From NCBI RefSeq assembly GCF_000619845.1, contig NZ_KK211037.1:30001-62000 (forward strand): a stretch of DNA of 32,000 nt, written 5' to 3'. The DNA comes from Alkanindiges illinoisensis DSM 15370. GTDB taxonomy: Bacteria > Pseudomonadota > Gammaproteobacteria > Pseudomonadales > Moraxellaceae. Positions 4 to 20,942 of the stretch are shown here, one piece after another. The position numbers were made by a program, and so were the translations under genes. Position 1 is the stretch's first letter; each line of letters opens with the position of its first letter. The notes beneath the pieces were generated by a model that worked only from the letters and a program-made list of their open reading frames with translations, did not search any database and was not told where the DNA came from.

Positions 4-2700
4 ATGATCACTTGTAATACTAGAGCGACTTTTGGTTCCAGACGGTTTTTATGGGCACAACTGGGTCTGCTGGCGTTAAGCATTGGTAGCCTGTTTTGCC
101 ACGATGCACATGCTGCACCGCTGGCTGGCACGATTATCAGCAACATGGCTATTGGTGAATATAAGGAAGAAGGCTCAAGCGTGGTGCAAACCAGCCGCTC
201 CAACCTGGTTCAAACCACCATTATTCCGGTTTATACCTTTACCCTGACCGCCAACCGTAGCGTGCAAGCCACTGCGGGCCAGCGGGTATTTTTCTCGCAT
301 GAACTGAGCAATACCGGCAACAGCACGGATCGCTACAATTTAACTGCTGCCAACCTGACTGGTGATAATTTTGATTACAGCAGTATTGTGGTGTATCTGG
401 ATGCCAATCGTGATGGCATTCCTGATGGCAGTGCAATTAGCAGTTATAGCCTGGCCGCTGGTGAATCAATAGGTTTGCTGGTTGGTGCCACCATTCCAGC
501 CGGTAGCAGCAATGCGGCAACTGGTGATGTCCAGCTCACCGCCACCTCACAAACCAGCAGCCAGTCCCAGCAAAATACCGACCGCAGTACGGTGAGCAAT
601 CAAGCCGTGATTCTGGTGCGCAAGTCATTTTCAGTCAGCACCGTTAATCAAAACCAGATTGTGACGGTGCGGCTGGATTATGAAAATCCCGGCGTGGTGG
701 CCAGCGGGCAGGTTAGCATCAGTGATACCCTTAACGCTGCACAACTCTCCTATGTGAATGATGGCACTGAAAACTGGAATGGCCAGATTGTTGATCCTGC
801 TACTGGTAGCAATGATCCAACAGGGATTAATTATTATTTAAATGGCAATACTATCAATGCGGTATTAACCAGTGTCCCGGCAGGTAGTTCCGGTTTTATC
901 CAGTTTAAGGTTAAGGTGAACCAAGTATTACCCGGCCGTATTCCCAACACGGTGCAGGTGAGCTATGACCACGACAACAGTGCGGCCACCACCGATATTA
1001 GCACAAACAGTAACACGGCAATTTTAACCATTAATCCCAGTTATGGCGTGGAAATCAATGGCATTTCTACCAGTGCCAGCAGTGCTGCAGCCGATAATCT
1101 GGTAACAGCCCCTGCGGTCAGCTCCGGTGGCGAGCTGCTGTTTAGGAACTATGTGTGGAACACCGGCAATAGTGAAGACCGTTTTAATCTAAGCTTTACC
1201 AATGACAATTTCCCAACCCCGCATCAGGTGGAATTCTACCGTGCCGATGGCGTGACGCCGTTGCTGGACAGCAATGGCGACGGCATTACGGATACCGGAC
1301 TGTTACAGGCGGGTGAAAAACTGGAAATTGTGGTCAGGTTACGCACCCCAACCACCTTTGCAGCCAGCGCTACCACCAGCTATAGCCTGTTTCCAAAAGC
1401 GCAATCGCTGGGCAACAGCAGCAAAACCGATACCGTAGAAGATCGCGGCAGTATCATCATTACCGATGCCAGCCGACTGGTGGATTTAACCAACAGCCCG
1501 GAAACCAGCAACAACGGAACGGGCAATAGCAGTATCAAGAATGCAGGCAATCCATGGAAAACCCTCACCGGGAGCTCATCGGGCACGGTAATTTTTCCAT
1601 TGTCAGTCAAGCATATGGGGACGCCCACAGCGTATGCCTTGAGCGCCGATGCCGATGGCAATTTTACTACCGTGGACTTGCCGCAGGGTGTGGCTGCCAT
1701 TCGCTTTTACCAGTCAACCAGTAATAGCTGTACTACGCTGGGCAGTGAAATCCAGCAAACCCGCCTGCTGGCTGATGGTGAAAGCCAGTTGTACTGCGCG
1801 GTCGTGACATTAAAGGCTGATGTAGCCACTGCCAGCAATATTCCCGTGTATTTCAAGGTGGCATCCAGCACTTATGTAAGCAGTAATAACGCCAGCAATC
1901 CCGGCTTTGATACCCTGATGAATGCCATTAATATCAGCAGCCTGAATAGCACTGGCAGCGTGGTGCTAACACCGGATCTGCGCGGACAGATTGCCCCGAA
2001 TGGCACGATTGTGTATAGCCATAACCTGATTAATAACGCTGCAACAGCACTTAATGGTAACTATTATCTGGCCATTAGCAACGACCAGCCCGGTTTTGAA
2101 ACTACCCTGTATTATGACCTCAACAACAATGGCCAGCTTGACAGCACAGACCTGCTGATTAATGGCACCTACAACATTAATGGCAGCATGATTGCCGCAG
2201 GTGCCCAGTTGCGGATTTTCGCCAAGGTACAGAACACGGGTTACAGCGGGGTAGGGGTGGTCAATACCACCAATATCATCATGCGTGATGGCAGTAACAA
2301 CACCATTGATTCGGTCACTGACATTACCACCATTAGTGCCACCCAGATTCGCCTGTCAAAACTGCAAGCCAAGGATAATAACTGTGATGGCGTGGCTGAG
2401 GGCAGCTATACCGCTGCCACCTTAACCATTGGCCGCAATGCTAATGGTTCCGGCCAGTGTGTGCTGTACCGTGTGACCGTACAAAATCAGGGTGCACTCA
2501 ATATTGGCGCATTCAACTTCCGGGATACCACACCGGCTGCTACCGTAATGGTGATTGCGCCAGTGTGTAGCAGTTGCACTGCAAATACCATTAGCGCGCC
2601 TGCCATTGGCCAGTCCGGCAGTATCAGCGGCACCGTTCCAGCAGTTGCCAGCGGCGCAAGCCATGTCTTTGAATTCGGGGTGCGCTATGCCGGCCAATAA
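4..2700 (+). CDS. Secreted multi-domain Ig-like (DUF11/CARDB-type) fibre subunit, paralog A. It has an N-terminal orphan strand and a C-terminal truncated DUF11-like domain.
   Basis: Uninterrupted 898-codon ORF with ATG at nt 4. The frame is open to the window edge, so an upstream start cannot be excluded. Sec-type signal peptide MITCNTRATFGSRRFLWAQLGLLALSIGSLFCHDAHA/AP. T/S/N/G/A-rich protein with recurring beta-sandwich signatures (FFSHELSNTGNSTDRYNL, VWNTGNSEDRFNL, YSHNLINNAA) and DxNxDG loops (YLDANRDGIPDG, DSNGDGITD, DLNNNGQLD). Co-linear with the 900-aa ORF at 10180-12882. Confidence 0.8.
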   Translation: MITCNTRATFGSRRFLWAQLGLLALSIGSLFCHDAHAAPLAGTIISNMAIGEYKEEGSSVVQTSRSNLVQTTIIPVYTFTLTANRSVQATAGQRVFFSHELSNTGNSTDRYNLTAANLTGDNFDYSSIVVYLDANRDGIPDGSAISSYSLAAGESIGLLVGATIPAGSSNAATGDVQLTATSQTSSQSQQNTDRSTVSNQAVILVRKSFSVSTVNQNQIVTVRLDYENPGVVASGQVSISDTLNAAQLSYVNDGTENWNGQIVDPATGSNDPTGINYYLNGNTINAVLTSVPAGSSGFIQFKVKVNQVLPGRIPNTVQVSYDHDNSAATTDISTNSNTAILTINPSYGVEINGISTSASSAAADNLVTAPAVSSGGELLFRNYVWNTGNSEDRFNLSFTNDNFPTPHQVEFYRADGVTPLLDSNGDGITDTGLLQAGEKLEIVVRLRTPTTFAASATTSYSLFPKAQSLGNSSKTDTVEDRGSIIITDASRLVDLTNSPETSNNGTGNSSIKNAGNPWKTLTGSSSGTVIFPLSVKHMGTPTAYALSADADGNFTTVDLPQGVAAIRFYQSTSNSCTTLGSEIQQTRLLADGESQLYCAVVTLKADVATASNIPVYFKVASSTYVSSNNASNPGFDTLMNAINISSLNSTGSVVLTPDLRGQIAPNGTIVYSHNLINNAATALNGNYYLAISNDQPGFETTLYYDLNNNGQLDSTDLLINGTYNINGSMIAAGAQLRIFAKVQNTGYSGVGVVNTTNIIMRDGSNNTIDSVTDITTISATQIRLSKLQAKDNNCDGVAEGSYTAATLTIGRNANGSGQCVLYRVTVQNQGALNIGAFNFRDTTPAATVMVIAPVCSSCTANTISAPAIGQSGSISGTVPAVASGASHVFEFGVRYAGQ

Positions 2701-2734
2701 GTTTATGTCTAAAAATTTAGAAGGGTGCAACCGC

Positions 2735-8700: not shown

Positions 8701-9325
8701 GCAACCCGCCAACAGTACCGACCAGAACTGGCAAGCCGTGGTGTACCGCGACAGCAACTGTAATGGCAAGGTAGATAGTGGAGAAAGCCTGTTTAGCCAA
8801 AGCCTGCCCCTAAGCCTGAAAAATGCGGAAGAAGCTTGTCTGGTACAGCGGGTTTATGCGCCGGCAACCGCCAGCATGGGCGCGCAGCATCTGGGTCAAT
8901 TGCAGGCCAGCTTTAGCGTGACGCTTGCTGACAATAGCCAGATTACAGGCAGCACCCTGCAACGTCAGGACACCACGTTACTGGGCAGTGCAGGTTTAAC
9001 CATGCAAAAAGGCGTGCGCAGTGTGGCCAGCTGTCCATCCACAGCCGCAGATACTGGCAGCTTTGGCGTGCAGAATCAGGTGCAAAATGGGGGGTATCTG
9101 GAATATGAAATTACCTACCGCAATAACACCACCAAAAACCTGATTGATGTCAGCATTAAGGATAGTGTGCCTACTGGAACAGTTTACAAGACTGCCTCCT
9201 GTACGAGCACGCCGTCTGGTAGCTGTAATGCCAGTCATACAAATGGCGCATTGCTGTGGCAGACTGGCGGCACCCTGTTGCCAAACCAGCAAGGGAAAGT
9301 CCGGTTTTGTGTTCAGGTACCTTAA
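2735..9325 (+). CDS. Giant (~2196 aa) secreted adhesin-like protein and candidate fibre tip. Domains in order: T/S/N/G-rich N-terminal region, several DUF11 repeats, five tandem ~100-aa Ig-like repeats, PA14-like segment, SdrD-B/CnaB-like domain, C-terminal truncated DUF11-like domain.
   Basis: Single ORF ending at the stop at 9323-9325. The ORF-track start at 2555 overlaps the upstream gene by 146 nt. In-frame ATGs lie at 2687, 2705 and 2735. I prefer 2735 because GAAGGG lies ~10 nt upstream and it falls after the upstream stop at 2698-2700; 2705 is an alternative. A signal-like segment HRLLSVWLKTAMLVLLGASSGLYA/AP follows a long n-region. Canonical DUF11 signatures are present: DLYVSKT..YTVRVTNAGP..NVTNTATVE; NLAITKTG..YTIKVWNKGPAAV..DNVP..FTNTATIS; DLAIDKTG..YSIKVWNKGPGAA..DTVP..ITNTATIA. 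SdrD-B-like segment: ISGQVFEDNSGS...TDANGEYSFSL. Confidence 0.85.
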   Translation: MPAQPVTASQTGQTTKAPATSHRLLSVWLKTAMLVLLGASSGLYAAPPTMELFTAGGSTTATGPSTSAQTNTYAFNPDNPSGTTASSTYYPKTAVTYTIENQQYTGTLANTGLVFGGDGDNIYIPLSGQGSPAATDFTSSRLNATPGTGIDINNNYGTRFLLRAGRLDNNSTHNTSTVNGGLGHYFGDIVVAWNRPVFNPIINISGLGGTSSNLGFAAQFQLSSPPTGTTISRLSGRNMGVSGFNITNTAADIGATASAGGSSGSIQVLNDNPITTLRFRVYVRSDSTTNSTDWGSTTAADAFVFSASSVDSTVGDLYVSKTNNTTSVVQGGSTTYTVRVTNAGPSTIATPILKDSSSTGLTATAVGCSSASGNKCTTTPTLASLNSGITIASLASGEFYEILVTSNVTASSGNVTNTATVELPNFASSTGESCVTSNGITRSYNQTTGTCTTTDTDSVTPATNLAITKTGTTSVKAGQPVSYTIKVWNKGPAAVTDAVMTDNVPANISGPILTCVASGTATCGTFNTHVAGSNARSATGISLPVDSTGNTSYVTYTVTGLAYQTGTFTNTATISSASVPETDSSDNSASKSTTITVDAPVTSGTASNQCSAAQAVNILTPTAFTVFDGDGTGASFTGTLAATVNNTGTVYGTGTNGAIVLSGKLSWSYGSPIVTGSTLSIRVNGVDYAVLTTPGASSNGSASSNAGTATLTALNGASVTPATLTIDNTYTSYTGRATFTLTLPTGVTSITSAQAVYQNNNPRTPTGSTGDDFGVSLDSALQCQKPIVKIAKISNGGVGTFGFTGLSNLSNASGTAVTTDSVSTTTAGTAVTSAQVNYATANSTAVGITESAVSGYNLTAASCTDANSAVTSNTGSFGSLSGNTLTIPAANVKYGANLTCTFNNTKQRNLTLRKIWVNARINDAATITATGLNSFVSTANTASETDTASAQAVTVGSTVTLGENISTGAGYYNAVLSCTRDSDNAAVSITGNNLIMPDADVTCGYTNSRKSASLTLQKIWANAKLNDAATITATGLTSLSAVANTASETDVAAGQTVYAGDSITLGETFTTGSISNYTSSLACTGNATALTGSTLTVNPADTAITCSYTNSRIAQQLSLSKQWQNAVNGHTATATTTGGTNNATFSSTSTGNNSTNGSAVTMYAGDVVTLPTETLGGGASAAQYNSTLACSGGTTLASGAVARSITISNSTTATVCTYTNARKSATLTLSKIWSAGSIAGNTATVTSSGFGNNATSGTSTATTAGNTTTGTSVTVYAGESGTISETFGTGNASNYSATLACSGNSTALSGNTLSINPADTAISCSYTNTVAGTDLAIDKTGTSSVTQGNNVSYSIKVWNKGPGAASSSTFTDTVPSALTNVSWSCSASGSAVCGTASGSGNSISVATGTLPVNASSTAPTSGSYLTFTVNGTASSSGNITNTATIAVTSGADPVSSNNSSSASTTISTPAAIIADTPQKEARFVITPDLPTIYRGQSGTQLISITNQGPDDASGTVAVFKPRTQTGVTVTSVKIVNGANCSLSSGEWSCPVGSIANGGSFQLQVGYDTTASSTLGTAIQADIRVGSNEFNPGSGVGESLYNVWGSTNPNGNSQFNEIRPNGAFALSYGTANGSENVNLSTVWLPTQVNPTGAYLTQAAIGGNNSVFGPSGTYNPMISRIITSLNTDTAKSQTLLALDPATQAGDNRRVWQLITGIYVPANSTASLCIGNAGSQLDDGAYIMLNGSQVGTDGKWSSSPFIQTSVPLNTGYNRITYRIANRNTPGSNEDYAQGLYGEIGLSINGGACTAASLDATARLQIPASINIVEKQVVNISGQVFEDNSGSTAVNSNAYNGVKNIGEAGITGSSVSITNCNSTTVATTKTDANGEYSFSLSPTDLPAGSFCIAQTNLTGYSSVSGTTGYSRATDRITVSNTGASSYSNHNFGDARLTALLSEDGQQTITAGGVADYPHRLTAQSVLTINSLNQTPSQQPANSTDQNWQAVVYRDSNCNGKVDSGESLFSQSLPLSLKNAEEACLVQRVYAPATASMGAQHLGQLQASFSVTLADNSQITGSTLQRQDTTLLGSAGLTMQKGVRSVASCPSTAADTGSFGVQNQVQNGGYLEYEITYRNNTTKNLIDVSIKDSVPTGTVYKTASCTSTPSGSCNASHTNGALLWQTGGTLLPNQQGKVRFCVQVP
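5090..6720 (+). repeat. Five tandem coding repeats (about 101-122 aa each) inside the giant adhesin gene. The repeat is visible at protein level; the DNA copies are diverged.
   Basis: In-frame repeat starts at nt 5090 (PIVKIAKIS), 5456 (RNLTLRKIW), 5759 (RKSASLTLQKIW), 6068 (RIAQQLSLSKQW) and 6398 (RKSATLTLSKIW). The repeats share the pattern L(T/S)L.K.W ... GD..TL.E ... Y...L.C ... C.YTN, and the first copy is more divergent (CTFNNTK). Confidence 0.85.
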
Positions 9326-9407
9326 TAGAGCCTATATGCGAACCAACATAATTATAGCTCTATATCTTTAGTCTTAGAGGACTTGAAAATTTATTAAAAG
9401 AACTGAC

Positions 9408-9434
9408 GAATTTGCCCCAAATTGGGGCAAATTC
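9408..9434 (+). terminator. Perfect 11-bp stem / 5-nt loop hairpin downstream of the giant adhesin gene. Candidate terminator or RNA-stability element; it has no U-tract.
   Basis: GAATTTGCCCC-AAATT-GGGGCAAATTC lies 83 nt after the stop at 9325. It is followed by AACCGATG rather than a T-run, so intrinsic-terminator status is uncertain. Confidence 0.35.
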
Positions 9435-9544
9435 AACCGATGAGTAATCAAAATAAGCCGCTTATCTGTATATTATTTGTGTAGTTAAGTAACAGTAGAA
9501 ATTTTTTTGTTAAAAAGATATATTAGTTCGTAATATTGTGACGG

Positions 9545-9563
9545 ATGCAACATTTTGTTGCAT
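9545..9563. promoter_or_regulatory. 19-bp palindrome ATGCAACA-TTT-TGTTGCAT in the AT-rich intergenic region. Candidate operator for the downstream four-gene unit.
   Basis: Perfect 8-bp arms separated by 3 nt, ~90 nt upstream of the ATG at 9651. The 325-nt non-coding stretch at 9326-9650 is AT-rich, and a promoter is expected there. Confidence 0.3.
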
Positions 9564-9650
9564 ATTAAAGACTTTTTTATCAATAAAGCGCTAGGTTCCT
9601 AAGGTAGCAGGTGTTTTTTGTTATCGTAATGCTTAGCCTTGGGAGTAGTT

Positions 9651-10145: not shown

Positions 10146-10179
10146 TTTACCCGTCTAACAAACAACTAGGGGCAACAAG

Positions 10180-12882
10180 ATGTCAAAGCACATCGCATTA
10201 CCGCGCTTAAATCAACTGGCTGCGTCCATTGCAGTGGTTGTCGGGGGTCTGGCGCTTGTACCTGCAGCACATGCTGCAGCACCAGCAGCAGGAACCAACA
10301 TCAGTAATATTGCAACTGCAAGCTATACCGATGCAACCAATACACCACGTACTGTGACTTCCAATGAAGTAAAAACCACTGTACTGCAGGTTGCCAGCTT
10401 CACTTTAACGGCTGATCAAACCACTACAGCAAATCCAAATGGACAGGTGAGCCTGGCACATACCCTGACCAATACGGGTAATGGTGCTGATACATTCAAG
10501 GTTGATCTGGCCAACGTTGGTGGGGATGACTACAACTTCAGCAATATTCATGTATATCTGGATGCCGACAAGAATGGCGTACCGGATAATAGCACTGACA
10601 TTAATGGCACGACGATTAGCGTCGGCGCAGGCCAGTCTGTTGGGTTGATTGTGGTTGGTACGACATTAAATACTGCAACCAATGGTCAGGCTGGTAAATT
10701 ACTGGTTTCTGCCACCAACGTATTTACTGCAACCGCAGCAGGTGGCAGCAATACCGCAACTACCGCCAATAATACGGATACCGTTAATATTGTTGCCGGT
10801 GCAGTCATTCAGGTGACTAAATCTGCCAACGTGACCAGCGTAAACCCAACTGGAACTAATCTCCAGCGTACCGTTGAATATACCCTGACCTATAAAAACA
10901 CCGGTAATGCGACAGCAACCAACGTTACTTTAAAAGACGTTCTGCCAGCCAACGTGGCTTATGTTGTCGGTTCTGGTGTATGGAGTGGTTCTGCCACCCC
11001 CCGTACCGATGCTACAGCTGATGAAGCAGGCGCCGCATACGATTTCACCAGCAATACTGTGAATTTTGTTTTAGGTAGTGTTGCACCAAACACCACTGGT
11101 ACTTTGAAATTTAAAGTTGTGGTTAATGCCAATACACCAGCAGGTTCGATTGCCAACACCGCAACCTTTGACCCGGATGGCCCAGGTACTGGTACTCCAG
11201 AACAGCCAACCAACACCACCATTGTAACCGTCAACTCCCTGTACGTCGGTACAATCAACGACTCGCAAACTGATGCCTATGCCGATGCTGATAAAGTAGC
11301 GGGTACTGCTGCAAAAGATGACGTGATCAGTGCAACCACGCAACAGGGCGTAGCCGTTAACTTCGGTAACAACGGTGGCGAGAAGATCTGGATTCACAAC
11401 ACGGGCAACGTATCAGAAACCTACAACATTGCCGTGAATAAAGCTGGCTTACCAGCCGGTAGTATTGTTGAGCTGTTAAAAGCAGACGGTGTAACACCAC
11501 TGACTGATACCAACAGTGATCCAGTTGTGGATTCTGGCCCGGTTGCTGCCGGTTCTGCCCAGCAGATCGTGGCACGTGTAACGCTGCCAAGCACCTACAC
11601 TGGCCCTGCACCAGTTAGCGCAATCCTGACCATTACGCCTGTATCCAATAACACTGCAACTGATACCGTGACGCTGACCATTAGCAGTATTACTGCATCC
11701 AAAGTGGATCTGAGCAATGGCAAAGGTGACAAGGACGGCGTTAAGAACGATACACCAAATGCAGGTGAAGGCGCCTATGTTGCTGGTGACATCATTGACA
11801 CCAAGACAACCAACCCGGCAACACCAGTAACGTTCCCGCTGGCTGTAACCAATTTTGGCAGTACTTCTGACAACTTTAACATCAGCTCAGACCTGCCAAC
11901 TGGCTGGACTGTGAAGTACTATACTTCTGATGCTACTGGCAACTGCTCTACCAACCAGGTCACCAACACAGGCAACATTGCTGTAAATGGTACTGCTTAT
12001 CTGTGTGCGGTAGTGACTTCACCAGCCAATGCAACCCCAGCTGATAGCCGTGACATCGTATTTGCAGTGACTTCTTCAGGTACTGGTTTAACTGATTCGA
12101 TCAAAGACCGTATTACCATTAACGAAGTACGCAACCTGTCATTCACCCCAGATCGTACTGGTCAAATCGCCCCAGGTGGCACAGTTACTTACATCCATAC
12201 CCTGATCAACAACGGTAACGTGACTGAAGGTGCTGGTGCCAACACCCTGCCATTTGCAATTACACATGCTGGCAATCTGGGCGCAACCACTTCTATATAT
12301 GTTGACCTGAACAATAACGGTCTGGCTGAAAATACAGAACTGGTTACGGGTACTGACTTAACTGCATTGCTGGCCACTGGTACAGCAAATGGTGCCGGTC
12401 TGCAACCCGGTGAATCTGTTACCATTCTGGTAAAAGTAGAAGCACCGAGCAACGCAACTGCAGGTCAGGCTGATACTTCAACTGTGACCATTACACCAAC
12501 TGCTGGTGCTGTGGTTCATATTGATGATACCAGTACTGTCAACATTGGTCAGGTACGTTTGACCAAGCAACAGGCAGCCGATGCCAACTGTGATGGAACC
12601 CCAGAAGGTTCTTATACTCAAAACGCCATTCAGGCCAAGCCAGGTACTTGTATCAGCTATCAGATTACTGCAGCAAACGACGGTAATGCCGGTGTTAGCA
12701 ATGTAGTGATCAGCGACGCGGTACCTGTATATACCACGCTGCAACCAGCACCAGCACCTGCCCTGACACCAGCGGCCAAAGGTAGTGTGACGGTTAATGG
12801 TAGTGCACTGGCCAGCAGCGCGTTTACTCTGGCGCCAACTGAGTCTGTAAACCTTAACTTTACTGTGAAAATCAATAACTAA
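10180..12882 (+). CDS. Secreted multi-domain Ig-like (DUF11/CARDB-type) fibre subunit, paralog B. It has an N-terminal orphan strand and a C-terminal truncated DUF11-like domain, and is a candidate major shaft subunit.
   Basis: 900-codon ORF with AGGGG 7 nt upstream of the ATG. Signal peptide MSKHIALPRLNQLAASIAVVVGGLALVPAAHA/AAP. Recurrent motifs LAHTLTNTGNGADTFKV, IHNTGNVSETYNI and YIHTLINNGNV. DUF11 core YTLTYKNTGNATATNVTLKDVLPANV...IANTATF. DxNxDG-like loops YLDADKNGVPD and DLNNNGLAE. Confidence 0.9.
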   Translation: MSKHIALPRLNQLAASIAVVVGGLALVPAAHAAAPAAGTNISNIATASYTDATNTPRTVTSNEVKTTVLQVASFTLTADQTTTANPNGQVSLAHTLTNTGNGADTFKVDLANVGGDDYNFSNIHVYLDADKNGVPDNSTDINGTTISVGAGQSVGLIVVGTTLNTATNGQAGKLLVSATNVFTATAAGGSNTATTANNTDTVNIVAGAVIQVTKSANVTSVNPTGTNLQRTVEYTLTYKNTGNATATNVTLKDVLPANVAYVVGSGVWSGSATPRTDATADEAGAAYDFTSNTVNFVLGSVAPNTTGTLKFKVVVNANTPAGSIANTATFDPDGPGTGTPEQPTNTTIVTVNSLYVGTINDSQTDAYADADKVAGTAAKDDVISATTQQGVAVNFGNNGGEKIWIHNTGNVSETYNIAVNKAGLPAGSIVELLKADGVTPLTDTNSDPVVDSGPVAAGSAQQIVARVTLPSTYTGPAPVSAILTITPVSNNTATDTVTLTISSITASKVDLSNGKGDKDGVKNDTPNAGEGAYVAGDIIDTKTTNPATPVTFPLAVTNFGSTSDNFNISSDLPTGWTVKYYTSDATGNCSTNQVTNTGNIAVNGTAYLCAVVTSPANATPADSRDIVFAVTSSGTGLTDSIKDRITINEVRNLSFTPDRTGQIAPGGTVTYIHTLINNGNVTEGAGANTLPFAITHAGNLGATTSIYVDLNNNGLAENTELVTGTDLTALLATGTANGAGLQPGESVTILVKVEAPSNATAGQADTSTVTITPTAGAVVHIDDTSTVNIGQVRLTKQQAADANCDGTPEGSYTQNAIQAKPGTCISYQITAANDGNAGVSNVVISDAVPVYTTLQPAPAPALTPAAKGSVTVNGSALASSAFTLAPTESVNLNFTVKINN

Positions 12883-12926
12883 TTTCTGGTTATTGACCTC
12901 ATAGTCTTTAAGTTTGTTGTTTTTAA

Positions 12927-12953
12927 TGGAAGCCGGTCTAGTACCGGCTTCCA
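12927..12953 (+). terminator. Intercistronic stem-loop (perfect 11-bp stem, 5-nt loop) between the 900-aa subunit gene and the barrel-fusion gene. Candidate attenuator or mRNA 3'-end stabiliser.
   Basis: TGGAAGCCGGT-CTAGT-ACCGGCTTCCA lies 45 nt after the stop at 12882. The downstream sequence TCCGAATTAAAACTTTATTC has only a weak T-run. Confidence 0.4.
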
Positions 12954-12986
12954 TCCGAATTAAAACTTTATTCAAGGTATATTGCT

Positions 12987-15900
12987 GTGTTGCGACATAC
13001 GAAAAATAACGCATACCAAGCGACATTCTTACTTTCTACACTTGCAGCGTCTATTGTGATGGCTCAGCAGGGTTACGCGGTAACACCCGTAATTCCAGTG
13101 GCTGGTGTGGCAATCAAGAATACAGCATACGCCACCTATCTTTCGCCAGAAGGCCAAACCCGTAATACCGAATCCAATACCGTTCAGGTTGAAGTAGCAG
13201 CCCTGTACGCCATTTCGCTCACCCAGCCTGCAACCCAGGAAATAGAAGCCGGTGCCCGCGTGGTGTGGCTCAACACCCTGACCAATACCAGCAATACCCA
13301 GGCCAGCATTAATATTGAAAAACTGGTAGCCAGTGGCTTAAGCAATATCAAGATTTATGTTGATAAAAACAAGAATGGTGAGTTTGACGCCAGTGATGAA
13401 GTCCTGAGCGGTTCCATTGTACTGGATCGCCTACAATCCATTAATCTGTGGGTGGTGGCAACAGCATCAGCTAACCTGCAGGATAAGCAGCAATTAAACC
13501 TGCCCATCAAGGCTGTTGTGGTTGAAGACCCGAATGTCACTGCCACAGCAACCGACAGTCTGGTGGCTTACCTGCCAGAACTTACCGCCAGCAAAACGGT
13601 TGATCAGGAAACCTTTACGCCCGGTAGTGGCAAAAGTTATGACCTGAACTACACCCTGACCCTGGAAAACAAAGGCTCACAGGCCATTCGTCCAACCCGT
13701 GTATTTATTGACGGACAGGCGCAGGACATGGTGGTGATGATAGATTCACTGCCGGCCAACACCATTTATAAAAGTGCCCAAAGCAATAATCCCAATGCGC
13801 TGATCCTGTTTAAAACCGGTGACAACAGCTATACCCGCCAGCAGCCGGCTGACCTCAAAAGCATTAATGATGTCGTGGTGGCCTATCCTGCCATTGAAGC
13901 GCACAGCGTTGAACGGGTGCAGCTTAGTGTTAGCATGAACAACAATATTGCCAGCACCACTTTAAATAACCAGTTTGCGGTCAAATACCAACTGGCCACC
14001 GGTGAAAAAACCACCCTGTCTAATATTGCCAAAACCGTGGTATCCGGCAAGTCTGCCATTAGTAATAACACCGGCAATTACAACCAGATTCTGGCTACTG
14101 GTAGCCTAAACAAGCCCTTGTATATTTCTGCCGACAGTGCGGTGTGCAATGCCAGCCGCGCTATCAGCGATCAGGTAAAAATCCGGGTTAAATCCACAGT
14201 TACCGGAGATGTGGTTGAAGTGATTGGTGTGGAAACTGCACCCAACAGCGGCCTGTTTCACTACCAGCTGGCCACGGTTGAAAGCACCACGGCCAATCCG
14301 AATGACCAAATTCTGCAAACAGTCAAGCGGGACAAGGTGCTGGTTAGTCTGGTGAACTGTCTGGATGCCAGCGGCAACCCGACAGCAACCATTAATGATG
14401 TCAACACCAATGTGCTGATTGACCCATACGGTATTGTATTTGATGCCAAGACTGGCAAGCCGGTTGTTGGTGCCAAAGTGACCCTGATGGATGCCAGTGG
14501 CAATCCGGTAGGCAACAATGTGGCCTTTAATGTGAATGCTGAAACTGGCGAGCTGATTTCCATTCCTGCCACGCAGCTCACCAATGAACTGGGTGAGTTT
14601 ATTTATCCGCAGGTGATTGCTGGTAACTATAGCCTGCAAGTGGACACGTCCACCATTCCCGGTTCAACCAAGTACACCTTTGTCAGTGACAAAACCGTTT
14701 ATCCCAGTTTTTCTAGTGATAAAGCCGTTCATCCGCAGTGGTCGTATGGCGGCAACTTTGCCCTGAATAATGGCGACCCGGCGTTAAATATTGATATTCC
14801 AGTTGATCCGGTACTGTCCACGCCAACCTCACCGCTGTTTGTGAAGAAAACCGCCACTCACACCACTGCCGAGCTGGGTGATTTTGAAGAATACACCGTG
14901 ACCGTGGCCAACCGTGGCGAAACGGTAGCGCAGGAGGTGTCCATTAAGGATACCCTGCCACGCGGCTTTATTTATGTGGCGGGCACGGCGCGGGTTAATG
15001 GCGTTAAGGTGAGTGATCCGCTGGGTGGCAAAGGCCCGTATCTGACCCTGGGCTTGGGTAATTTGGATGCCAATAAAGAAGTTAAAATCCAGTACCGTGT
15101 GCAGATTGGTCCCAATGCCTTGAATGGCGATGGTATTAATCGCGTACGCGCGCGCGATGCCAGCGGCGTGGAATCCAACGAAGCTTCGGCCAAAATTGAA
15201 GTCACGCCCGGCGTACTGATGTCGGATGCATTTATTGTGGGCAAGGTCTTTATGGACTGTAACCGCAATGGCATGCAGGATGTGGGTGAGCGCGGTGTGC
15301 CCGGTATCCGCCTGTTCATGGAAGATGGCAGCTATGTCATCACTGACCGTGAAGGCAAATATGACTTTTATGGCGTGAGCGCCAAAACCCATGTGTTAAA
15401 GCTGGATCGCAGCACCCTGCCGGGCAATGCTGAAATGGTATTGCTGGGCAACCGTAATGCCGGTGATGCCGGTAGCCGTTTTGTTGACCTCAAGCGTGGC
15501 GAACTGCACCGTGCCGATTTTGCCATTGCGGATGGCGCAGGCACCTGTACCCAGCCGCTGGTTGAACAGGTTGACAAGCGCAAGGAAAAGATTGAAGAAC
15601 AAAACCTCAATCTGGAACAGGTACTGCGTGCCGACCTGTCATTAGACCCGCTGCGTTATAGCGTGGGCGATGTGCGCAGCCAGCCAGCCAGTGGCTGTAT
15701 CAGTGCGCAGGGCGTTACTGCCAACTGTAATATTGAGCTGTCCAAAGACCAGATTAAAGAGCTGCGTGCGGCACAAATTGAACCCGTCAAGGCACCAGTA
15801 CTGGTTGATCTTGAGCAGGCACTGGCTGAAGCCAATAGCAATCAACTGGCCATTTTAAACTTAAAAGACGGGCAAACCCTGCCGTATGCACAAACCACCG

Positions 15901-18900
15901 TTCAGGTGAAAGGCGTGGCTGGTGCAATGATTGAGCTATGGGTCAATGGCCAGCACATTGATGACAAGCGCATTGGCAAAAAAGCCATTCTGCCGGATTT
16001 CCAGATTGCCGGTTTTGACTATATTGGTGTAGACCTCAAGCCGGGCAGTAACCAGATTGAAGTGCGCCAGCTGGACAGCATGGGTAACCTGCGTGAACAG
16101 CAAAAGATTCAGGTGATTGCTCCGGATCAAATGAGCAAGCTGGCCTTGAGTGCACCCAGGCAGGAAGCACAGGCTAACGGTTCTGATGTGTTCAGTGCTG
16201 TGCTGAAAATTGTCGATCACAATGGCACCATGGTGGCCAGCCGTACCCCGATTACGCTGGAAAGCACCATTGGCAAGGTTGAGATCAAAGACCTGGATCC
16301 TGCTCAGCCCGGCATTCAGGTGTTTGTGGAAGGCGGCACGCTGCTGGTGCCAATTACTGCACCCAGTGAGGCGGGCGAAGGCACCTTAAACGTCACCAGT
16401 GGCATTTATAATGCCAACCTGCCAGTGCGCTTCCTGCCGGCACTGCGTCCAATGATTGCCGCCGGTATTGTCGAAGGGGCGATTTCCTTCCAGAAATTTG
16501 ATCCCAAGCAACTGAGTCAGGTGAACCGCAACGATGGCTTTGAAGAAGAGCTCAACGACATTGCATCCAGTAATGGCGGCAAAACCAACACCACGGGTCG
16601 TGCGGCATTATTTTTAAAAGGTAAGGTAAAAGGCGAATACCTGCTGACGCTGGCTTATGACTCCGACAAGGACAAAGACCAGCGCCTGTTCCGTGATATC
16701 CGTCCTGATGAATATTATCCGGTATATGGTGATGCCGCCGCCAAGGGCTTTGATGCGCAATCCACCAGCAAACTATATGTGCGGGTCGACAAGGGCCGTT
16801 CCTATGTTATGTATGGTGATTACGTTACCCGCACCGACAATGATGACGGCTTGTCTTTAGGCCAGTACAACCGCTCTTTGACTGGCGCGCGCACCAGCAT
16901 TGAAACCGATCGCACCAAAATCACTGGCTTTGTGGCGCAAACCAATGCCACCCAGATTACCAACGAACAGCGTGGCTTGGGCATTACCGGCCCGTATTCA
17001 CTGGGTCAGGTCAGCAGCGATGATGTGCTGCGCAATAGTGAAAAAGTGGAAGTGATTGTGCGTGACCGCAATAATCCGGGTCTGATCATTTCCCAGCGTA
17101 CACTGGCGCGGTTTACCGACTATGAAGTGGATACCTTCAGCAACAGTATTTATTTAAAAGAAGCCGTTTCCAGCGTTGATAGCAACTTAAATCCGGTTTA
17201 CCTGCGTATTACTGTAGAAGCCGATCAGGGCGGTGAAGAATATACCGTGGGCGGGGTGTCCGGCTCGGTAAAAGTCACCAGCAAGGTGCAAGTGGGGGGG
17301 TCTTACGTCAAGAGTGATGACCCGCTCACTGATGAGCAACTGGCCAGTGTCAATACCGTTATCAAGCTGAATGACCGTGCTAAGCTGGTGGCTGAAGTGG
17401 CCCGTAGTGAAAACACCATTGATCCAGCCAACAGCTTATCAAACATTAATGCCAGCACATCGGCCACGGGTGAGCAGTCCGGCACTGCTGGCCGCATTGA
17501 GCTGGATTACAGCATCAACAATATTGAATTGCGTGCTTACCACAATCAGGCCGACAGCGGTTTTTACAACACGGCTTCACCAATTACTGCCGGACGCAAG
17601 GAAAGTGGTATTAAGGCACAGGCACGGGTGGAAAAACTGGGCTTAACCCGTTTTGAAGCCATTCGTACCGAAGACCAGGCCAATCAGGGCGTGCGTCAGG
17701 GCATTTCCGCCAGTGTGGAACGTGCCTTGAACCGCCTGATGTCACTGGAACTAGGTGTGCGCTATTACGAAGAAACCGTGAGCGCTGCTAGTGCCACCAG
17801 CCAGCAGGTAACCCCGTATGATGGCACCACAGTACGCGCCAAGCTAAACAGTGCGCTGCCCTGGGAAGGCTCCAATGCCTTTATTGAATACGAGCAGGAT
17901 ATCAGTGATGCGGATCGCCGGATTTTTGCGCTGGGTGGCAATTACCAGATTAGTCCAAAAGCCCGCCTGTATGCCCGTCAGGAAATTATTTCCAGCATCA
18001 ATGGCCTGTATGAACTAAACGATACCCAGCGCCGCAACACCACCGTGGTGGGGATTGACAGCAATTACAGTCAGGATGGTTCGGTGTTTAGTGAATACCG
18101 GGTACGTGATGGCATCAGTGCGCGTGAAGCCGAAGCGGCGATTGGAACCCGCAACCGCTGGCAAGTGGCCAAAGGAATTTATGCCAACACCAGTCTGGAA
18201 AAAGTCAAGGCGATTGCTGGTACTGACAACCAGTCACTGGACAGCACGGCAGCCTCGGTTGGTCTGGAATACCTGACCAATCCGGACTGGAAAGGGGTAG
18301 CGCGTTTGGAAATGCGCTGGGCTGATCAGTCTGACACCTTGCTCAATACACTGGGTCTGGCTTACAAGCTCACCGATGATGTCACCCTGTTGACCAAAAA
18401 CGTGTTTAGCCAGATTGACAACAAGGGCGATACCACCGGCGATCGTGTAATTGACCGCTTTCAGGTTGGTGCAGCCTACCGTGACTTTGACCAGAACCGC
18501 TTTGATGCGCTGACCAAGCTGGAATACCGTTATGAAAATGACGAAACCAACCTGTCCAGCCCATATCTGCGCAATGTGTATATTTTGTCCAACCATGCCA
18601 ACTTTCACCCGAATCGCAAAACCACGCTGTCTGGTCAGTATGCAGTGAAGTATGTCAAGGCAGACTTTGAAGGCATCAAGTCCACAGGTGCTACCCAGTT
18701 GCTGAGTGGCCGTGCCATGTATGACATCAGCGAGCGCTGGGATGCAGGCATTAATGCCGGCCTGCTGTGGAGCGATGCCAGCGAAGGCCGTCGCCTGCTG
18801 CTGGGCGGTGAAGTCGGCTATTTGTTGGCCGCCAATTTATGGCTGTCTGCCGGTTATAACTTCTCCGGCTACAAGGACAAGGATCTGGCAGATAGCAGCA

Positions 18901-19013
18901 CCACTATTCAGGGGCCTTATTTACGCTTCCGCTTCAAGTTTGATGAAGACCTGCTGAACTTTGATCACAGCAATGTCAACAAATCGCAGGAGCCAGACGA
19001 TGCAGGCCATTAA
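12987..19013 (+). CDS. 2008-aa outer-membrane protein and candidate fibre anchor or pore. Domains in order: signal peptide, orphan DUF11 strand, Ig-like/DUF11/CnaB-like/SdrD-B/Big-like domains, ~830-aa C-terminal beta-barrel-like region.
   Basis: GTG start at 12987 with AAGG 9 nt upstream; TTG at 12990 is an alternative. Signal peptide MLRHTKNNAYQATFLLSTLAASIVMAQQGYA/VTP. DUF11 unit LFVKKTA..YTVTVANRGETVAQEVSIKDTLPRGF..KIQYRVQIG..SNEASAKIEVT. SdrD-B-like GKVFMDCNRNGMQDVGERGVPGIRLFMEDGSYVITDREGKYDFYGV. Prealbumin/CnaB-like DPYGIVFDAKTGKPVVGAKVTLMDASGNPV. Big_1-like ANGSDVFSAVLKIVDHNGTMV. From ~nt 16440 the sequence shows alternating amphipathic strand pairs with aromatic and G/N/D/S turns (e.g. 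RIELDYSINNIELRAYHN, RFQVGAAYRDF..LTKLEYRYEN, LLLGGEVGYLLAANLWLSAGYNF). This region ends in the beta-signal-like GPYLRFRFKF at 18915-18941. Confidence 0.9.
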   Translation: MLRHTKNNAYQATFLLSTLAASIVMAQQGYAVTPVIPVAGVAIKNTAYATYLSPEGQTRNTESNTVQVEVAALYAISLTQPATQEIEAGARVVWLNTLTNTSNTQASINIEKLVASGLSNIKIYVDKNKNGEFDASDEVLSGSIVLDRLQSINLWVVATASANLQDKQQLNLPIKAVVVEDPNVTATATDSLVAYLPELTASKTVDQETFTPGSGKSYDLNYTLTLENKGSQAIRPTRVFIDGQAQDMVVMIDSLPANTIYKSAQSNNPNALILFKTGDNSYTRQQPADLKSINDVVVAYPAIEAHSVERVQLSVSMNNNIASTTLNNQFAVKYQLATGEKTTLSNIAKTVVSGKSAISNNTGNYNQILATGSLNKPLYISADSAVCNASRAISDQVKIRVKSTVTGDVVEVIGVETAPNSGLFHYQLATVESTTANPNDQILQTVKRDKVLVSLVNCLDASGNPTATINDVNTNVLIDPYGIVFDAKTGKPVVGAKVTLMDASGNPVGNNVAFNVNAETGELISIPATQLTNELGEFIYPQVIAGNYSLQVDTSTIPGSTKYTFVSDKTVYPSFSSDKAVHPQWSYGGNFALNNGDPALNIDIPVDPVLSTPTSPLFVKKTATHTTAELGDFEEYTVTVANRGETVAQEVSIKDTLPRGFIYVAGTARVNGVKVSDPLGGKGPYLTLGLGNLDANKEVKIQYRVQIGPNALNGDGINRVRARDASGVESNEASAKIEVTPGVLMSDAFIVGKVFMDCNRNGMQDVGERGVPGIRLFMEDGSYVITDREGKYDFYGVSAKTHVLKLDRSTLPGNAEMVLLGNRNAGDAGSRFVDLKRGELHRADFAIADGAGTCTQPLVEQVDKRKEKIEEQNLNLEQVLRADLSLDPLRYSVGDVRSQPASGCISAQGVTANCNIELSKDQIKELRAAQIEPVKAPVLVDLEQALAEANSNQLAILNLKDGQTLPYAQTTVQVKGVAGAMIELWVNGQHIDDKRIGKKAILPDFQIAGFDYIGVDLKPGSNQIEVRQLDSMGNLREQQKIQVIAPDQMSKLALSAPRQEAQANGSDVFSAVLKIVDHNGTMVASRTPITLESTIGKVEIKDLDPAQPGIQVFVEGGTLLVPITAPSEAGEGTLNVTSGIYNANLPVRFLPALRPMIAAGIVEGAISFQKFDPKQLSQVNRNDGFEEELNDIASSNGGKTNTTGRAALFLKGKVKGEYLLTLAYDSDKDKDQRLFRDIRPDEYYPVYGDAAAKGFDAQSTSKLYVRVDKGRSYVMYGDYVTRTDNDDGLSLGQYNRSLTGARTSIETDRTKITGFVAQTNATQITNEQRGLGITGPYSLGQVSSDDVLRNSEKVEVIVRDRNNPGLIISQRTLARFTDYEVDTFSNSIYLKEAVSSVDSNLNPVYLRITVEADQGGEEYTVGGVSGSVKVTSKVQVGGSYVKSDDPLTDEQLASVNTVIKLNDRAKLVAEVARSENTIDPANSLSNINASTSATGEQSGTAGRIELDYSINNIELRAYHNQADSGFYNTASPITAGRKESGIKAQARVEKLGLTRFEAIRTEDQANQGVRQGISASVERALNRLMSLELGVRYYEETVSAASATSQQVTPYDGTTVRAKLNSALPWEGSNAFIEYEQDISDADRRIFALGGNYQISPKARLYARQEIISSINGLYELNDTQRRNTTVVGIDSNYSQDGSVFSEYRVRDGISAREAEAAIGTRNRWQVAKGIYANTSLEKVKAIAGTDNQSLDSTAASVGLEYLTNPDWKGVARLEMRWADQSDTLLNTLGLAYKLTDDVTLLTKNVFSQIDNKGDTTGDRVIDRFQVGAAYRDFDQNRFDALTKLEYRYENDETNLSSPYLRNVYILSNHANFHPNRKTTLSGQYAVKYVKADFEGIKSTGATQLLSGRAMYDISERWDAGINAGLLWSDASEGRRLLLGGEVGYLLAANLWLSAGYNFSGYKDKDLADSSTTIQGPYLRFRFKFDEDLLNFDHSNVNKSQEPDDAGH

Positions 19014-20148
19014 GTTAAAACTGGCGCTGGCAGCCTGTCTGGTCAGCGGTTTGGCATTGGCCATGCCTGCCATGAGCCAGCCTGTAGCCAATCAGTCTGA
19101 TAACCCGCTGGAACAAAATAGCGTGGCGGCGTTACAACAGCGGGTTCAGCCATTTTTGCAAAGTAATGATGTGCTAACTCAGTACCATGCCCAAAAAGCG
19201 CAAATGTGGCTGACTTATGCGGCCAACCAACACAGTGAGGGCAGCTCCACGGCGGCTGAACAGCAGGCACAGGCGCAAGCCTTACAACTCATTGAACAGT
19301 TGGAACAACAGCAGCCTGTTTCTACTACCACGCCAGTGATTCAGGCTTCCAAAGTCATGCGCCGCGATTTATGGGTCAATGCCGAGTTGCTTAAACAGCA
19401 AGCAGGTTTTGACTGTGCAGCCACTGAAATTGCACAGGCGGAAGTCATGCTGGTGTGGGCTGCTGCCGAACATTGTGAGCTGGGCTGGCGACATTCGCGG
19501 GAGCTGTTTGCGGCGGCTGAGCGCTTGATTGACAAGGCCAATTATCAGGCAGCCAATTGCCATGCTACGGCGCAATCACTGGCCGCCCAGCCCTTACCAG
19601 CATGGAACAAGGCTAATTATCCCAGTCTTGAGCAGTTAAATGGCCCTGAAAAAGGCTGTCATGGTGTGGTTGGCCCATGGCCATTGGTGAGTGCCACAAC
19701 AGTTGCGCCAGTAGTTTCCCAGCCTGTTAATCCAGTAGCTGAACCAGCAACGCAGGACGTTCTACCCAACGTGGTACATTTTGCGCTGGATCAGGCCAGC
19801 TTGTCGCAAGCCTCACAGCAGGTGCTGGGTGATATTGCCACCGTGCTGGGCAAAAATAGCAATTATTCACTGACCCTGTATGGCTATACCGATGCCCGCG
19901 GCAGTCAGGCTTATAATCTGGACTTAAGTCAGCGCCGTGCCAAAACCGTTGAAAACTTTTTAATTCAGCAGGGCGTGGATGCCAGCCGGATTGCCACGGT
20001 GGCTGCCGGTGAGCAGCAATTGATCAGCGATCCAAAAGCGGTTGTGGGTCATGCCTTAAGTCGCCGGGTAGTGCTGGTGTATGCCAGCCCGGATGGACAG
20101 GAAATTAAAACCACATCCCAGACCAGTGACTTACAGCCTGAACATTAA
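19000..20148 (+). CDS. Periplasmic OmpA-C-like (peptidoglycan-binding) protein with a Cys-containing helical N-terminal domain.
   Basis: ATG at 19000 with AGGAG 7 nt upstream; the ORF-track TTG at 18961 was rejected. The start overlaps the 3' end of the upstream gene by 14 nt. Signal peptide MQAIKLKLALAACLVSGLALAMPAMS/QP. The C-terminal OmpA-like motif is VHFALDQASL...LYGYTDARGSQAYNLDLSQRRAKTVENFLIQQGVDASRI..AGEQQ...RRVVLV. Confidence 0.85.
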   Translation: MQAIKLKLALAACLVSGLALAMPAMSQPVANQSDNPLEQNSVAALQQRVQPFLQSNDVLTQYHAQKAQMWLTYAANQHSEGSSTAAEQQAQAQALQLIEQLEQQQPVSTTTPVIQASKVMRRDLWVNAELLKQQAGFDCAATEIAQAEVMLVWAAAEHCELGWRHSRELFAAAERLIDKANYQAANCHATAQSLAAQPLPAWNKANYPSLEQLNGPEKGCHGVVGPWPLVSATTVAPVVSQPVNPVAEPATQDVLPNVVHFALDQASLSQASQQVLGDIATVLGKNSNYSLTLYGYTDARGSQAYNLDLSQRRAKTVENFLIQQGVDASRIATVAAGEQQLISDPKAVVGHALSRRVVLVYASPDGQEIKTTSQTSDLQPEH

Positions 20149-20164
20149 TTCAGGCTGTTTTTTT
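20133..20164 (+). terminator. Rho-independent terminator of the adhesin/fibre cluster.
   Basis: ACAGCCTGAA-CATTAA-TTCAGGCTGT followed by a T7 run. The TAA stop of the OmpA-like gene lies in the loop. Confidence 0.85.
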
Positions 20165-20237
20165 GCCTTCAATCTTTTAGTTCAATTTTCTGGCTTGAAA
20201 TTCTGATAGCTTGTCCAGTTGTTCTCACAATTGAAAA

Positions 20238-20810: not shown

Positions 20811-20942
20811 CGAGTTCATCCTGAACGGTTGGGTTACAAGAATGGTACGGCGCTGCCAGAAAATTGCTATCCCCTGAATAGGGGAGAAACTCGCACGCAC
20901 TATTAATTTTTATAAATTTTGCCAGCAAGCGCGCCAAAGTCT

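Follow-up and report, generated by a model that had tools for sequence, protein, structure and literature searches.

A Gene Cluster of Alkanindiges illinoisensis Predicted to Encode a Surface Fibre Built on a Split CLIPPER Domain

Genes of the cluster and the divided CLIPPER domain

The window analyzed here is a 32,000-nucleotide (nt) stretch of the Alkanindiges illinoisensis DSM 15370 genome (contig NZ_KK211037.1, positions 30,001 to 62,000). It carries a cluster of genes, P1 to P6 (Table 1), which may encode a surface fibre whose subunits are joined through the two parts of a split CLIPPER domain. A first reading of the DNA letters, called the original prediction below, had listed six co-directional open reading frames (ORFs) for signal-peptide proteins. 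All six were confirmed on the + strand, together with their coordinates and quoted terminal sequences, and each leader shows a hydrophobic stretch and an AxA-type site when read by eye, without a predictor. P5 and P6 overlap by 14 nt (P6 ATG at 19000, P5 stop at 19013). Besides these six genes, the operon has a seventh, which lies beyond the 5' edge of the window. This gene, P0 (881-892 amino acids, aa), is a paralogue of P1 and P4 and is known from close relatives (homologues P0123 and P0185; 87% and ~52% identity to P1), in which it lies directly 5' of P1. This means that the window starts inside the operon.

PF01345, formerly DUF11, has been renamed CLIPPER and has a CnaA-like fold (bioRxiv 10.1101/2025.04.25.650565). 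Pfam matches bear out the DUF11-type folds that had been proposed: P2 (117.6 bits), P4 (46.0 bits), and P5 (45.5 bits) exceed the gathering cutoff of 24.6, the match in P1 is weak, and P3, at 22.2 bits, lies just under the cutoff and scores 25.2 bits against TIGR01451 (cutoff 24). Five CLIPPER repeats, together with SpaA_4 and SdrD_B domains, were counted by Pfam in P2, and CLIPPER is also found in P4 and P5. The internal strand of P2 that had been quoted as a reference was located at residue 566. Homologues of P1 carry only the annotation "DUF11 domain-containing" or "hypothetical."

The C-terminal domains cover positions 10-76 (P1), 11-84 (P2), 12-87 (P3), and 8-85 (P4) of the 114-position PF01345 profile. 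The claim that these four proteins end in homologous truncated domains stands, but P3 is not an equivalent acceptor. In P0, P1, P2, and P4, the C-terminal CLIPPER domain is without its two final strands (the acceptor), and P1, P4, P5, and also P0 begin directly past the signal peptide with these two strands (the donor). The original prediction had seen in the N-terminal segments of P1, P4, and P5 an orphan last strand. These segments do score better than shuffled ones, as described below, but the missing piece is a hairpin of about 35 aa, formed by the penultimate and the last strands, with the motif I-x-N-x-A…SN-x-V, not the last strand alone. Within P4, the internal stretch LKFKVVVNANTPAGSIANTATF…TNTTIVTV corresponds, by eye, to LNFTVKINN at the C-terminal end plus AAPAAGTNISNIATASY…SNEVKTTV directly past the signal peptide. 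The donor of P0 reads LPLAGSQITNIASGDY..SNPVSLTI and its acceptor LRLTKAQA..IQDMVP..LYFSIRVNP, which is followed by the stop codon. The donor motif was not found at the N-terminus of P2.

The PF01345 profile detects none of the isolated donors. When a donor was appended to an acceptor, the alignment to this profile was extended to positions 96-111, and the scores rose from 31.7 to 33.1, from 16.0 to 17.6, and from 29.5 to 32.0 bits. The P1 acceptor with an appended donor covered 10-101, the P2 acceptor with the P1 donor reached 96 (29.5 to 32.0 bits), and the P4 acceptor with the P5 donor covered 8-111. When a donor was appended to P3, the score fell from 23.0 to 19.4 bits.

A second profile, a hidden Markov model of the complete domain with 152 positions, was built from the internal CLIPPER domains of 38 P4-like proteins. 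On this model, the acceptors occupy positions 17-111 (median 26.6 bits) and the donors 116-151 (median 11.6 bits; the P4 donor alone, 13.7 bits at 116-151), whereas 190 shuffled donors had a median of 2.4 bits and none scored above 6.7 bits. Chimeras of acceptor and donor span 17-151 with a median of 39.6 bits, against 24.0 bits when the donor part was shuffled. The match of the N-terminal motif to internal CLIPPER domains is more than chance. In addition, a profile of the chimeras aligned by hhalign with that of the complete P5 CLIPPER domain over 143 columns across the junction (probability 95.7%, E 3.7e-9), with "IsNiA" of the donor on "GINRa," which contains the isopeptide Asn, and "isDatP" of the acceptor on "l.D.LP." A homology search for an unsplit version, with a 156-aa chimera and only 133 scored candidates, gave matches over the acceptor part (up to 74%) or over the donor part (22-26%) but none that spanned the two, a result that is neutral as to the split. 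Judged from sequence, the truncated domains and the orphan hairpins are complementary halves of one domain.

In CLIPPER domains that contain an isopeptide bond, a Lys of the first strand is linked to an Asn of the penultimate strand, with an Asp as the catalyst (K715, N806, and D748 in PDB entry 9IFR); some CLIPPER domains have no isopeptide (bioRxiv 10.1101/2025.04.25.650565). The internal CLIPPER domain of P5 aligns with 9IFR (E 1.5e-7), so that K621, D655, and N718 fall on K715, D748, and N806, respectively. In the split domains, Lys and Asp are on the acceptor and Asn is on the donor (Table 1). In the 73 P4-like acceptors, the L-x-K-x-Q motif (99% for K and 100% for Q) is invariant, as are two paired Cys residues and the "isDatP" Asp (100%). 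Over all classes of acceptor, the Asp is present in 135 of 135 domains and the Lys is aligned in 123; the other 12 show an unaligned but canonical "L.L.K" first strand by eye. The first Asn column of the donors is Asn in 132 of 133 and Asp in one, and the second is Asn in all 133. The single Asp belongs to a Verrucomicrobial P5-like protein (locus L001, 10001-14698; IVSDAEFGY), in which the chemistry would still permit an isopeptide between Lys and Asp.

Since Lys and the catalytic Asp are carried by one chain and Asn by the other, an autocatalytic Lys-Asn bond between subunits is predicted. As the donor hairpin includes the Asn-bearing strand, the link between the subunits is probably covalent. 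The original prediction held no such covalent lock, which is probably to be added to it.

Table 1. Features of the P1-P6 cluster and of P0 in related genomes (K, D, and N with numbers, residues of the split or complete triad)
Feature	Position (nt)	Strand	Description
P1	4..2700	+	898 aa; fibre subunit, N-terminal donor hairpin and C-terminal acceptor domain (predicted)
P1 donor hairpin	115..225	+	Residues 38-74; N47 at nt 142-144 (predicted isopeptide), N67; IISNMAIGEY..SNLVQTTI
P1 truncated CLIPPER acceptor	2326..2697	+	K786, D841
P2	2735..9325	+	2196 aa; giant adhesin with an acceptor only, predicted to form the distal tip
P2 truncated CLIPPER acceptor	8957..9322	+	K2092, D2143
Inverted repeat GAATTTGCCCCAAATTGGGGCAAATTC	9407-9435	+	P2-P3 spacer; perfect hairpin, 13-bp stem
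Sigma-70-like site	9496-9524	+	P2-P3 spacer; consensus match only
P3	9651..10145	+	164 aa; secreted truncated CLIPPER-like protein without reactive Lys/Asp
P4	10180..12882	+	900 aa; donor and acceptor, predicted main polymerising shaft subunit
P4 donor hairpin	10276..10386	+	Residues 33-69; N43 at nt 10306-10308, N62
P4 internal complete CLIPPER	10792..11241	+	K214, D253, N326; unsplit reference
P4 truncated CLIPPER acceptor	12532..12879	+	K796, D846, Cys pair
P5	12987..19013	+	2008 aa; donor-only stalk fused to giant outer-membrane barrel (predicted)
P5 donor hairpin	13083..13196	+	Residues 33-70; N45 at nt 13119-13121, N64; AIKNTAYATY..SNTVQVEV; isopeptide Asn column N in 60/60 P5-like proteins
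P5 internal complete CLIPPER	14796..15221	+	K621, D655, N718
P5 conserved C-terminal module	16287..19010	+	908 aa; Big_1/invasin-like immunoglobulin (Ig) domains, motif, strands to YLRFRFKFDE
P6	19000..20148	+	382 aa; periplasmic helical domain and OmpA-like peptidoglycan-binding domain
P6 OmpA-like domain	19780-20046	+	Residues 261-349; Pfam PF00691, 76.2 bits (cutoff 27.2)
Strong terminator-like hairpin and T7	20133..20165	+	At P6 stop; operon end
P0 in relatives	L083 7298-9973; L084 7340-9985		Donor and acceptor paralogue

The conserved gene set P3, P4, P5, and P6

About 80 loci in Moraxellaceae, Beta- and Gammaproteobacteria, Geobacteraceae, and Verrucomicrobia, with 73 P4-like and 60 P5-like proteins, have this pattern of termini in common. 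The same termini are seen in Oleiharenicola (Verrucomicrobia), a Geobacteraceae metagenome-assembled genome, Usitatibacteraceae, Polaromonas, and Chthoniobacteraceae, and donor and acceptor roles recur together at every locus examined. When the neighbours at the ~80 loci were clustered, only four families were found across taxa: the barrel family to which P5 belongs (80), P3-like (66), P6-like (58), and P4-like (39 + 32). The P4-like genes adjoin the P3-like and barrel genes, and large acceptor-only adhesins of varying sequence flank this core on either side. P3, P4, and P5 (with P6) are the only conserved gene set. As had been proposed as a check, the complementary termini thus co-occur with the barrel fusion and the OmpA-like gene elsewhere.

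The roles deduced from the termini are donor plus acceptor for P0, P1, and P4, acceptor-only for P2, donor-only with a barrel for P5, and a dead acceptor for P3. The original role matrix recurs in this form at about 80 loci of several phyla, but P3, in which the reactive Lys and Asp are absent, has to be set apart from the other acceptors.

The last ~900 aa of P5 represent a large unnamed family, with >680 matches at ~40% identity. It comprises 1375 clusters at 50% identity (E<=1e-30; 1.84 billion representatives) and at least 576 loci in GTDB species representatives. In P5, about 32 long antiparallel strands are encoded from about nt 17193 onward. An AlphaFold2 (AF2) model of the module, calculated from a 44-sequence alignment, had a predicted local distance difference test (pLDDT) score of 76.3 and 32 long antiparallel strands in fragment residues 303-885, as counted from the DSSP list. 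Foldseek returned only generic large outer-membrane barrels for this model (SlpA, SprA, FimD/PapC, MtrB, LptD, and TonB-dependent transporters), with template modelling (TM) scores of at most 0.36. The C-terminal part of P5 therefore models, as originally suggested, as a very large β-barrel, and one without a specific structural relative. The most conserved motif of the family, RLFRDIxPDEFYPVYGDSS, is encoded at 16686-16740 (P5 residues ~1234-1251), 5' of the barrel strands. Its pLDDT is below 50 in the model, and it might act as a plug or latch or bind a partner.

Some members of the family consist of the barrel only. Each of these (L085, 1701-14355; L086, 5667-14538) has a signal peptide of its own and a Cys pair at the N-terminus but lacks a donor. 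The gene on their 5' side, with a 4-nt overlap, encodes a giant donor-less CLIPPER/SdrD_B adhesin with a Cys-containing tail, and the gene on their 3' side is OmpA-like. This suggests that the barrel can serve a separate polypeptide in trans, which favours a translocon and anchor over a mere membrane anchor. It should be mentioned that the 9IFR fragment, from Acinetobacter silvestris B9T28_05395 and the only CLIPPER domain with a solved structure, matches in the local ORF set only the single internal CLIPPER domains of P5-like proteins, with 25-35% identity. Its parent protein, of 2129 aa and OmpA-like at one end, might be a barrel-family member and a P5 orthologue, although this identity and the tandem CLIPPER repeats of the protein leave doubt.

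P6 is OmpA-like, as had been stated, and no specific NCBIfam equivalog was reached by it; against TpgA of NCBIfam it scores 49 bits (cutoff 350), only over the generic OmpA part. Residues 1-260 (19000-19780) have no Pfam match. This N-terminal half contains a helical region of the "Y..AKAQ.WL…Y.ENDR" type, which is common to the OmpA-like partners in the distant loci L056, L085, and L086, and is a candidate for a barrel-binding domain. Of 77 loci, 51 have a P6-like gene directly 3' of the barrel gene. A natural P5-P6 fusion, with the OmpA domain joined to the C-terminus of the barrel, is seen in P0336 and P0360, and in P0282 the C-terminal extension of the barrel consists of tetratricopeptide repeats instead. 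These OmpA fusions tie P5 and P6 together and place that end of the barrel in the periplasm. P6 is predicted to tether the barrel to the cell wall.

The P3 family comprises 64 ORFs in 63 loci and is always located directly 5' of a P4-like gene. In Psychrobacter, two P3-like/P4-like pairs occur in tandem (e.g., L035, 1571-7357), with shorter P4-like subunits of ~670-720 aa; this one-to-one pairing points to a separate P3 for every shaft subunit. The profile of the family aligns with that of the complete CLIPPER domain at template columns 27-114 of 155 (hhalign probability 93%, E 3e-7), so that P3 and the other acceptors stop at one and the same loop. The column of the catalytic Asp is occupied by Leu ("aTLPIP"), no Lys is conserved, and an insertion, "AqAStDGknfa.mPL.RK…YRaLRW," is specific to the family. 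Without Lys and Asp, P3 is most simply read as an acceptor that cannot lock, and it is probably a non-covalent chaperone or a cap. A periplasmic chaperone that reversibly holds the donor hairpins has, in our estimate, slightly less than an even chance. A role as distal cap is less likely than this, and we regard it as rather doubtful.

A putative exchange-and-lock fibre

These observations might be explained by a surface fibre of a diderm bacterium, assembled by complementation of a split CLIPPER domain with a donor hairpin and then locked by an isopeptide bond; we consider this reasonably probable. The subunits would be exported by Sec, and in the fibre all N-termini would point away from the cell, each hairpin entering the C-terminal domain of the neighbour on the distal side and completing the fold of that domain. 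The rebuilt Lys-Asp-Asn triad would then form the isopeptide between the subunits autocatalytically, that is, by a sortase-free exchange and lock, and the bond would make every addition irreversible. P2, the acceptor-only adhesive tip, would be followed by the adaptors P0 and P1, the P4 polymer, and the donor-only P5, with growth at the base as in chaperone-usher pili. Reaction of the P5 hairpin would end growth; the P5 stalk would follow the fibre out, and its linker would stay in the lumen of the barrel. The ~32-strand barrel would anchor the fibre in the outer membrane and is most likely also the export channel, a functional equivalent of the usher. P6 would fix the barrel to the peptidoglycan, and P3 might keep the donor hairpins unreactive in the periplasm until a reactive acceptor takes them over.

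Several points weigh against this model. The gains in PF01345 score from an appended donor are small (1.4-2.5 bits). Relative to canonical CLIPPER domains, the insertion with the Cys pair moves the acceptor Lys ~15-20 residues away from the next strand, and the Lys strand was left unaligned by hhalign when the chimera and P5 CLIPPER profiles were compared. Among PDB sequences, 9IFR was not reached by phmmer with the chimera or the P4 internal domain, nor by a 16-sequence chimera profile; only the P5 internal domain reaches it, so that the link to a solved isopeptide runs via two alignments. AF2 run on a fusion of the P4 acceptor and the P5 donor as a single sequence was uninformative (pLDDT 36.6). 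The geometry of the P5 barrel (closure, strand number, lumen size) is provisional. Insertion in trans, polymerisation, and the covalent bond are predictions from sequence, and for the crossing of the outer membrane, the periplasmic protection of the acceptors, and the order of the subunits in the fibre we rely on inference.

The same fibre might be held together by purely non-covalent insertion of the hairpin, the Lys, Asp, and Asn being structural leftovers of the CLIPPER fold. The CLIPPER domains without isopeptides (bioRxiv 10.1101/2025.04.25.650565), the displaced and unaligned Lys strand of the acceptors, and P3, which shows that the fold is possible without Lys and Asp, would all fit this explanation. 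However, the triad residues are 99-100% conserved across phyla, specifically in the split domain, and P3, the paralogue that is expected to bind reversibly, has lost exactly Lys and Asp. Non-covalent insertion therefore seems improbable.

It is quite improbable, too, that the proteins are independent monomeric fibrillar adhesins, exported or anchored by P5, in which the hairpin packs on its own domain or cyclises head-to-tail and the truncated domain is a stable variant. Single-chain fibrillar adhesins with CLIPPER stalks are common (bioRxiv 10.1101/2025.04.25.650565), the barrel-only loci pair with a single giant donor-less adhesin, and self-complementation is formally possible for P0, P1, and P4, which hold both a donor and an acceptor. 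Against this, all proteins and loci have the break in one particular loop, the halves add up to one domain, and donor and acceptor roles co-recur at every locus examined. Moreover, at least P5, which has a donor but no acceptor, and P2 and P3, which have an acceptor but no donor, need a partner in trans. A periplasmic or envelope-spanning assembly (a covalent tether of outer membrane and wall, or an envelope lattice, with P5 as membrane anchor only and P6 as wall anchor) would suit the lack of a recognised secretion system for P1-P4, the presence of an OmpA-like partner that is sometimes fused, and the inferential nature of barrel export, but it is highly improbable, since P2-like proteins have large adhesin-type N-terminal regions with SpaA-/SdrD-type domains typical of surface proteins, the ~32-strand barrel is far larger than an anchor requires, and the periplasm would be too narrow for subunits of 900-2200 aa that consist of rigid Ig-like domains.

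The exchange-and-lock fibre resembles chaperone-usher pili (FimA/PapA, FimC/PapD, FimD/PapC) in its Sec signals, in the predicted completion of an incomplete Ig-like fold by the N-terminal extension of a neighbour, in the acceptor-only tip adhesin, the basal terminator, and the large outer-membrane barrel encoded in the operon, and in the division of roles among tip, adaptors, rod, and terminator. On the other hand, the donor here would be a hairpin of two strands, and the domain completed by it would be the last one of a multidomain subunit of 900 aa. The subunits are probably linked covalently, the barrel, with ~32 strands instead of 24, is fused to the terminator subunit, and the putative chaperone P3 is a mimic of the acceptor, not a strand donor. 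No Pfam or NCBIfam match to a PapD-like chaperone (PF00345/PF02753) was found in the window ORFs or among the conserved neighbours, and P5 has no Pfam match to the usher family PF00577 (24-strand barrel, plug, N-terminal domain, and C-terminal domains). The Foldseek TM scores of P5 with FimD/PapC (0.21-0.36) are no better than those with other large barrels. The original statement that a PapD-like chaperone, usher, sortase, and LPXTG motif are all missing is thus correct as regards matches, but for the usher it holds for homology only, the P5 barrel being the obvious functional equivalent.

With the sortase pili (SpaA, RrgB, Spy0128), the predicted fibre shares multidomain subunits of the CnaA/CnaB type, Lys-Asn isopeptides, and covalent continuity, and P1 weakly matches the isopeptide domain of RrgB. 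However, it has no pilin-motif Lys, its host is diderm, the bond would form autocatalytically inside a reconstituted domain, and the C-termini (..RYAGQ, ..CVQVP, ..AVGQ, ..VKINN) stop directly after a β-strand, without LPXTG or a hydrophobic tail. No sortase gene is present in the window, the flanks, or the conserved neighbours.

In the SpyTag/SpyCatcher, SnoopTag/SnoopCatcher, and isopeptag/pilin-C pairs, Lys and a catalytic acid are on one partner and an Asn/Asp strand is on the other, and the partners ligate spontaneously on docking. These pairs are laboratory constructs from Gram-positive adhesins, whereas the split described here would be natural and part of a polymerising operon, with an N-terminal hairpin of ~35 aa as the tag.

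Precedents for strand complementation with an isopeptide lock are the archaeal thread (Saci_0406; PMC9715654) and BsaA of Clostridium perfringens, a TasA-family protein (bioRxiv 10.1101/2024.11.04.621531). In this donor-strand "exchange and lock," a strand is donated by the N-terminus and an isopeptide forms spontaneously between molecules, without a sortase. Their folds are unrelated to CLIPPER (thread head domain; TasA/peptidase-M73-like), their chemistry differs (Asn to the N-terminal amine between n and n+2, and an N-E-K triad, compared with K-D-N here), and their hosts are archaeal or monoderm, with no outer-membrane barrel. The window proteins have no Pfam match to TasA/peptidase_M73 or related families. 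The CLIPPER adhesin of 9IFR belongs to the same domain family and has the same Lys/Asp/Asn triad as the internal domain of P5, but only intramolecular bonds in single-chain adhesins were described for it, without a split domain, polymerisation, or a barrel (bioRxiv 10.1101/2025.04.25.650565).

P5 is similar to autotransporters in that an N-terminal passenger and a C-terminal barrel are in one chain, and P6 resembles the peptidoglycan-binding partner encoded downstream in the AtaA/TpgA system of Acinetobacter sp. Tol5. The P5 barrel, however, has ~900 aa and ~32 strands, not 12, and shows no Pfam match to the autotransporter barrel PF03797. The type V pili of Bacteroidota differ in their lipoprotein pilins, proteolysis of the N-terminal strand, and C-terminal donors, as compared with leaders that look by eye like signal peptidase I substrates and an N-terminal donor here; FimA/Mfa gave no Pfam match. 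The type I, type II, and type IX secretion systems, two-partner secretion, and sortase routes were rejected, as none of their genes is conserved in the neighbourhood of the barrel.

In the literature, covered mostly outside subscription journals, no description of this system or of a covalent strand-exchanged Gram-negative pilus was found, in agreement with the original remark that no described DUF11-based strand-exchange fibre of Gram-negative bacteria was known to its author. Matches to DUF11 together with a donor strand concerned DUF1102 tafi and endospore appendages and were set aside as unrelated. Because the defining components of the compared systems are absent and no description was found, we rate the cluster, on computational evidence, as a new kind of fibre-assembly system. 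The chances are about even that it represents an unrecognised, widespread class of diderm pilus, with at least 576 species and 1375 clusters at 50% identity, in which a hairpin enters a split CLIPPER domain and welds itself there, a ~32-strand barrel serves export, termination, and anchoring, and a dead P3 acts as chaperone, without sortase, PapD, or usher.

If this is true, a Gram-negative, covalently linked pilus would exist without a sortase, which bears on whether isopeptide-stabilised covalent fibres occur beyond Gram-positive bacteria and on how they are built across an outer membrane. The split domain would be a natural counterpart of SpyTag/SpyCatcher, from which many orthogonal tag/catcher pairs shaped by evolution could be drawn, and giant barrels of the P5 type would be a new family in the outer membrane, at once translocon and anchor. 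Acinetobacter johnsonii, Moraxella osloensis, and Psychrobacter are culturable candidate hosts. The system is present in environmental and host-associated Moraxellaceae and may matter for adhesion and biofilms.

Regulatory features and flanking genes

The spacer between P2 and P3 is 326 nt long and AT-rich. Its hairpin and sigma-70-like site (Table 1) may represent an internal promoter or regulatory site for the core module, so that P3-P6 may form a transcription unit of their own. A Shine-Dalgarno-like GGGAG is located 6 nt 5' of the P3 ATG.

Upstream of P0 in the relatives are fmt/rsmB or an SNF transporter, and nothing chaperone-, usher-, or sortase-like was found on this upstream side. Downstream of the cluster, the region of 20.3-32 kb is occupied by unrelated housekeeping genes for LysR, IlvD/Edd, flavin mononucleotide reductase, MarR, a hydrolase, and phosphoenolpyruvate carboxylase. 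An Rfam scan of the window gave no match. Three ORFs have no Pfam match: 20298-20900 (-), 25278-26582 (+), and 28047-28445 (-), of 200, 434, and 132 aa, respectively. The 434-aa ORF is conserved in locus L003.

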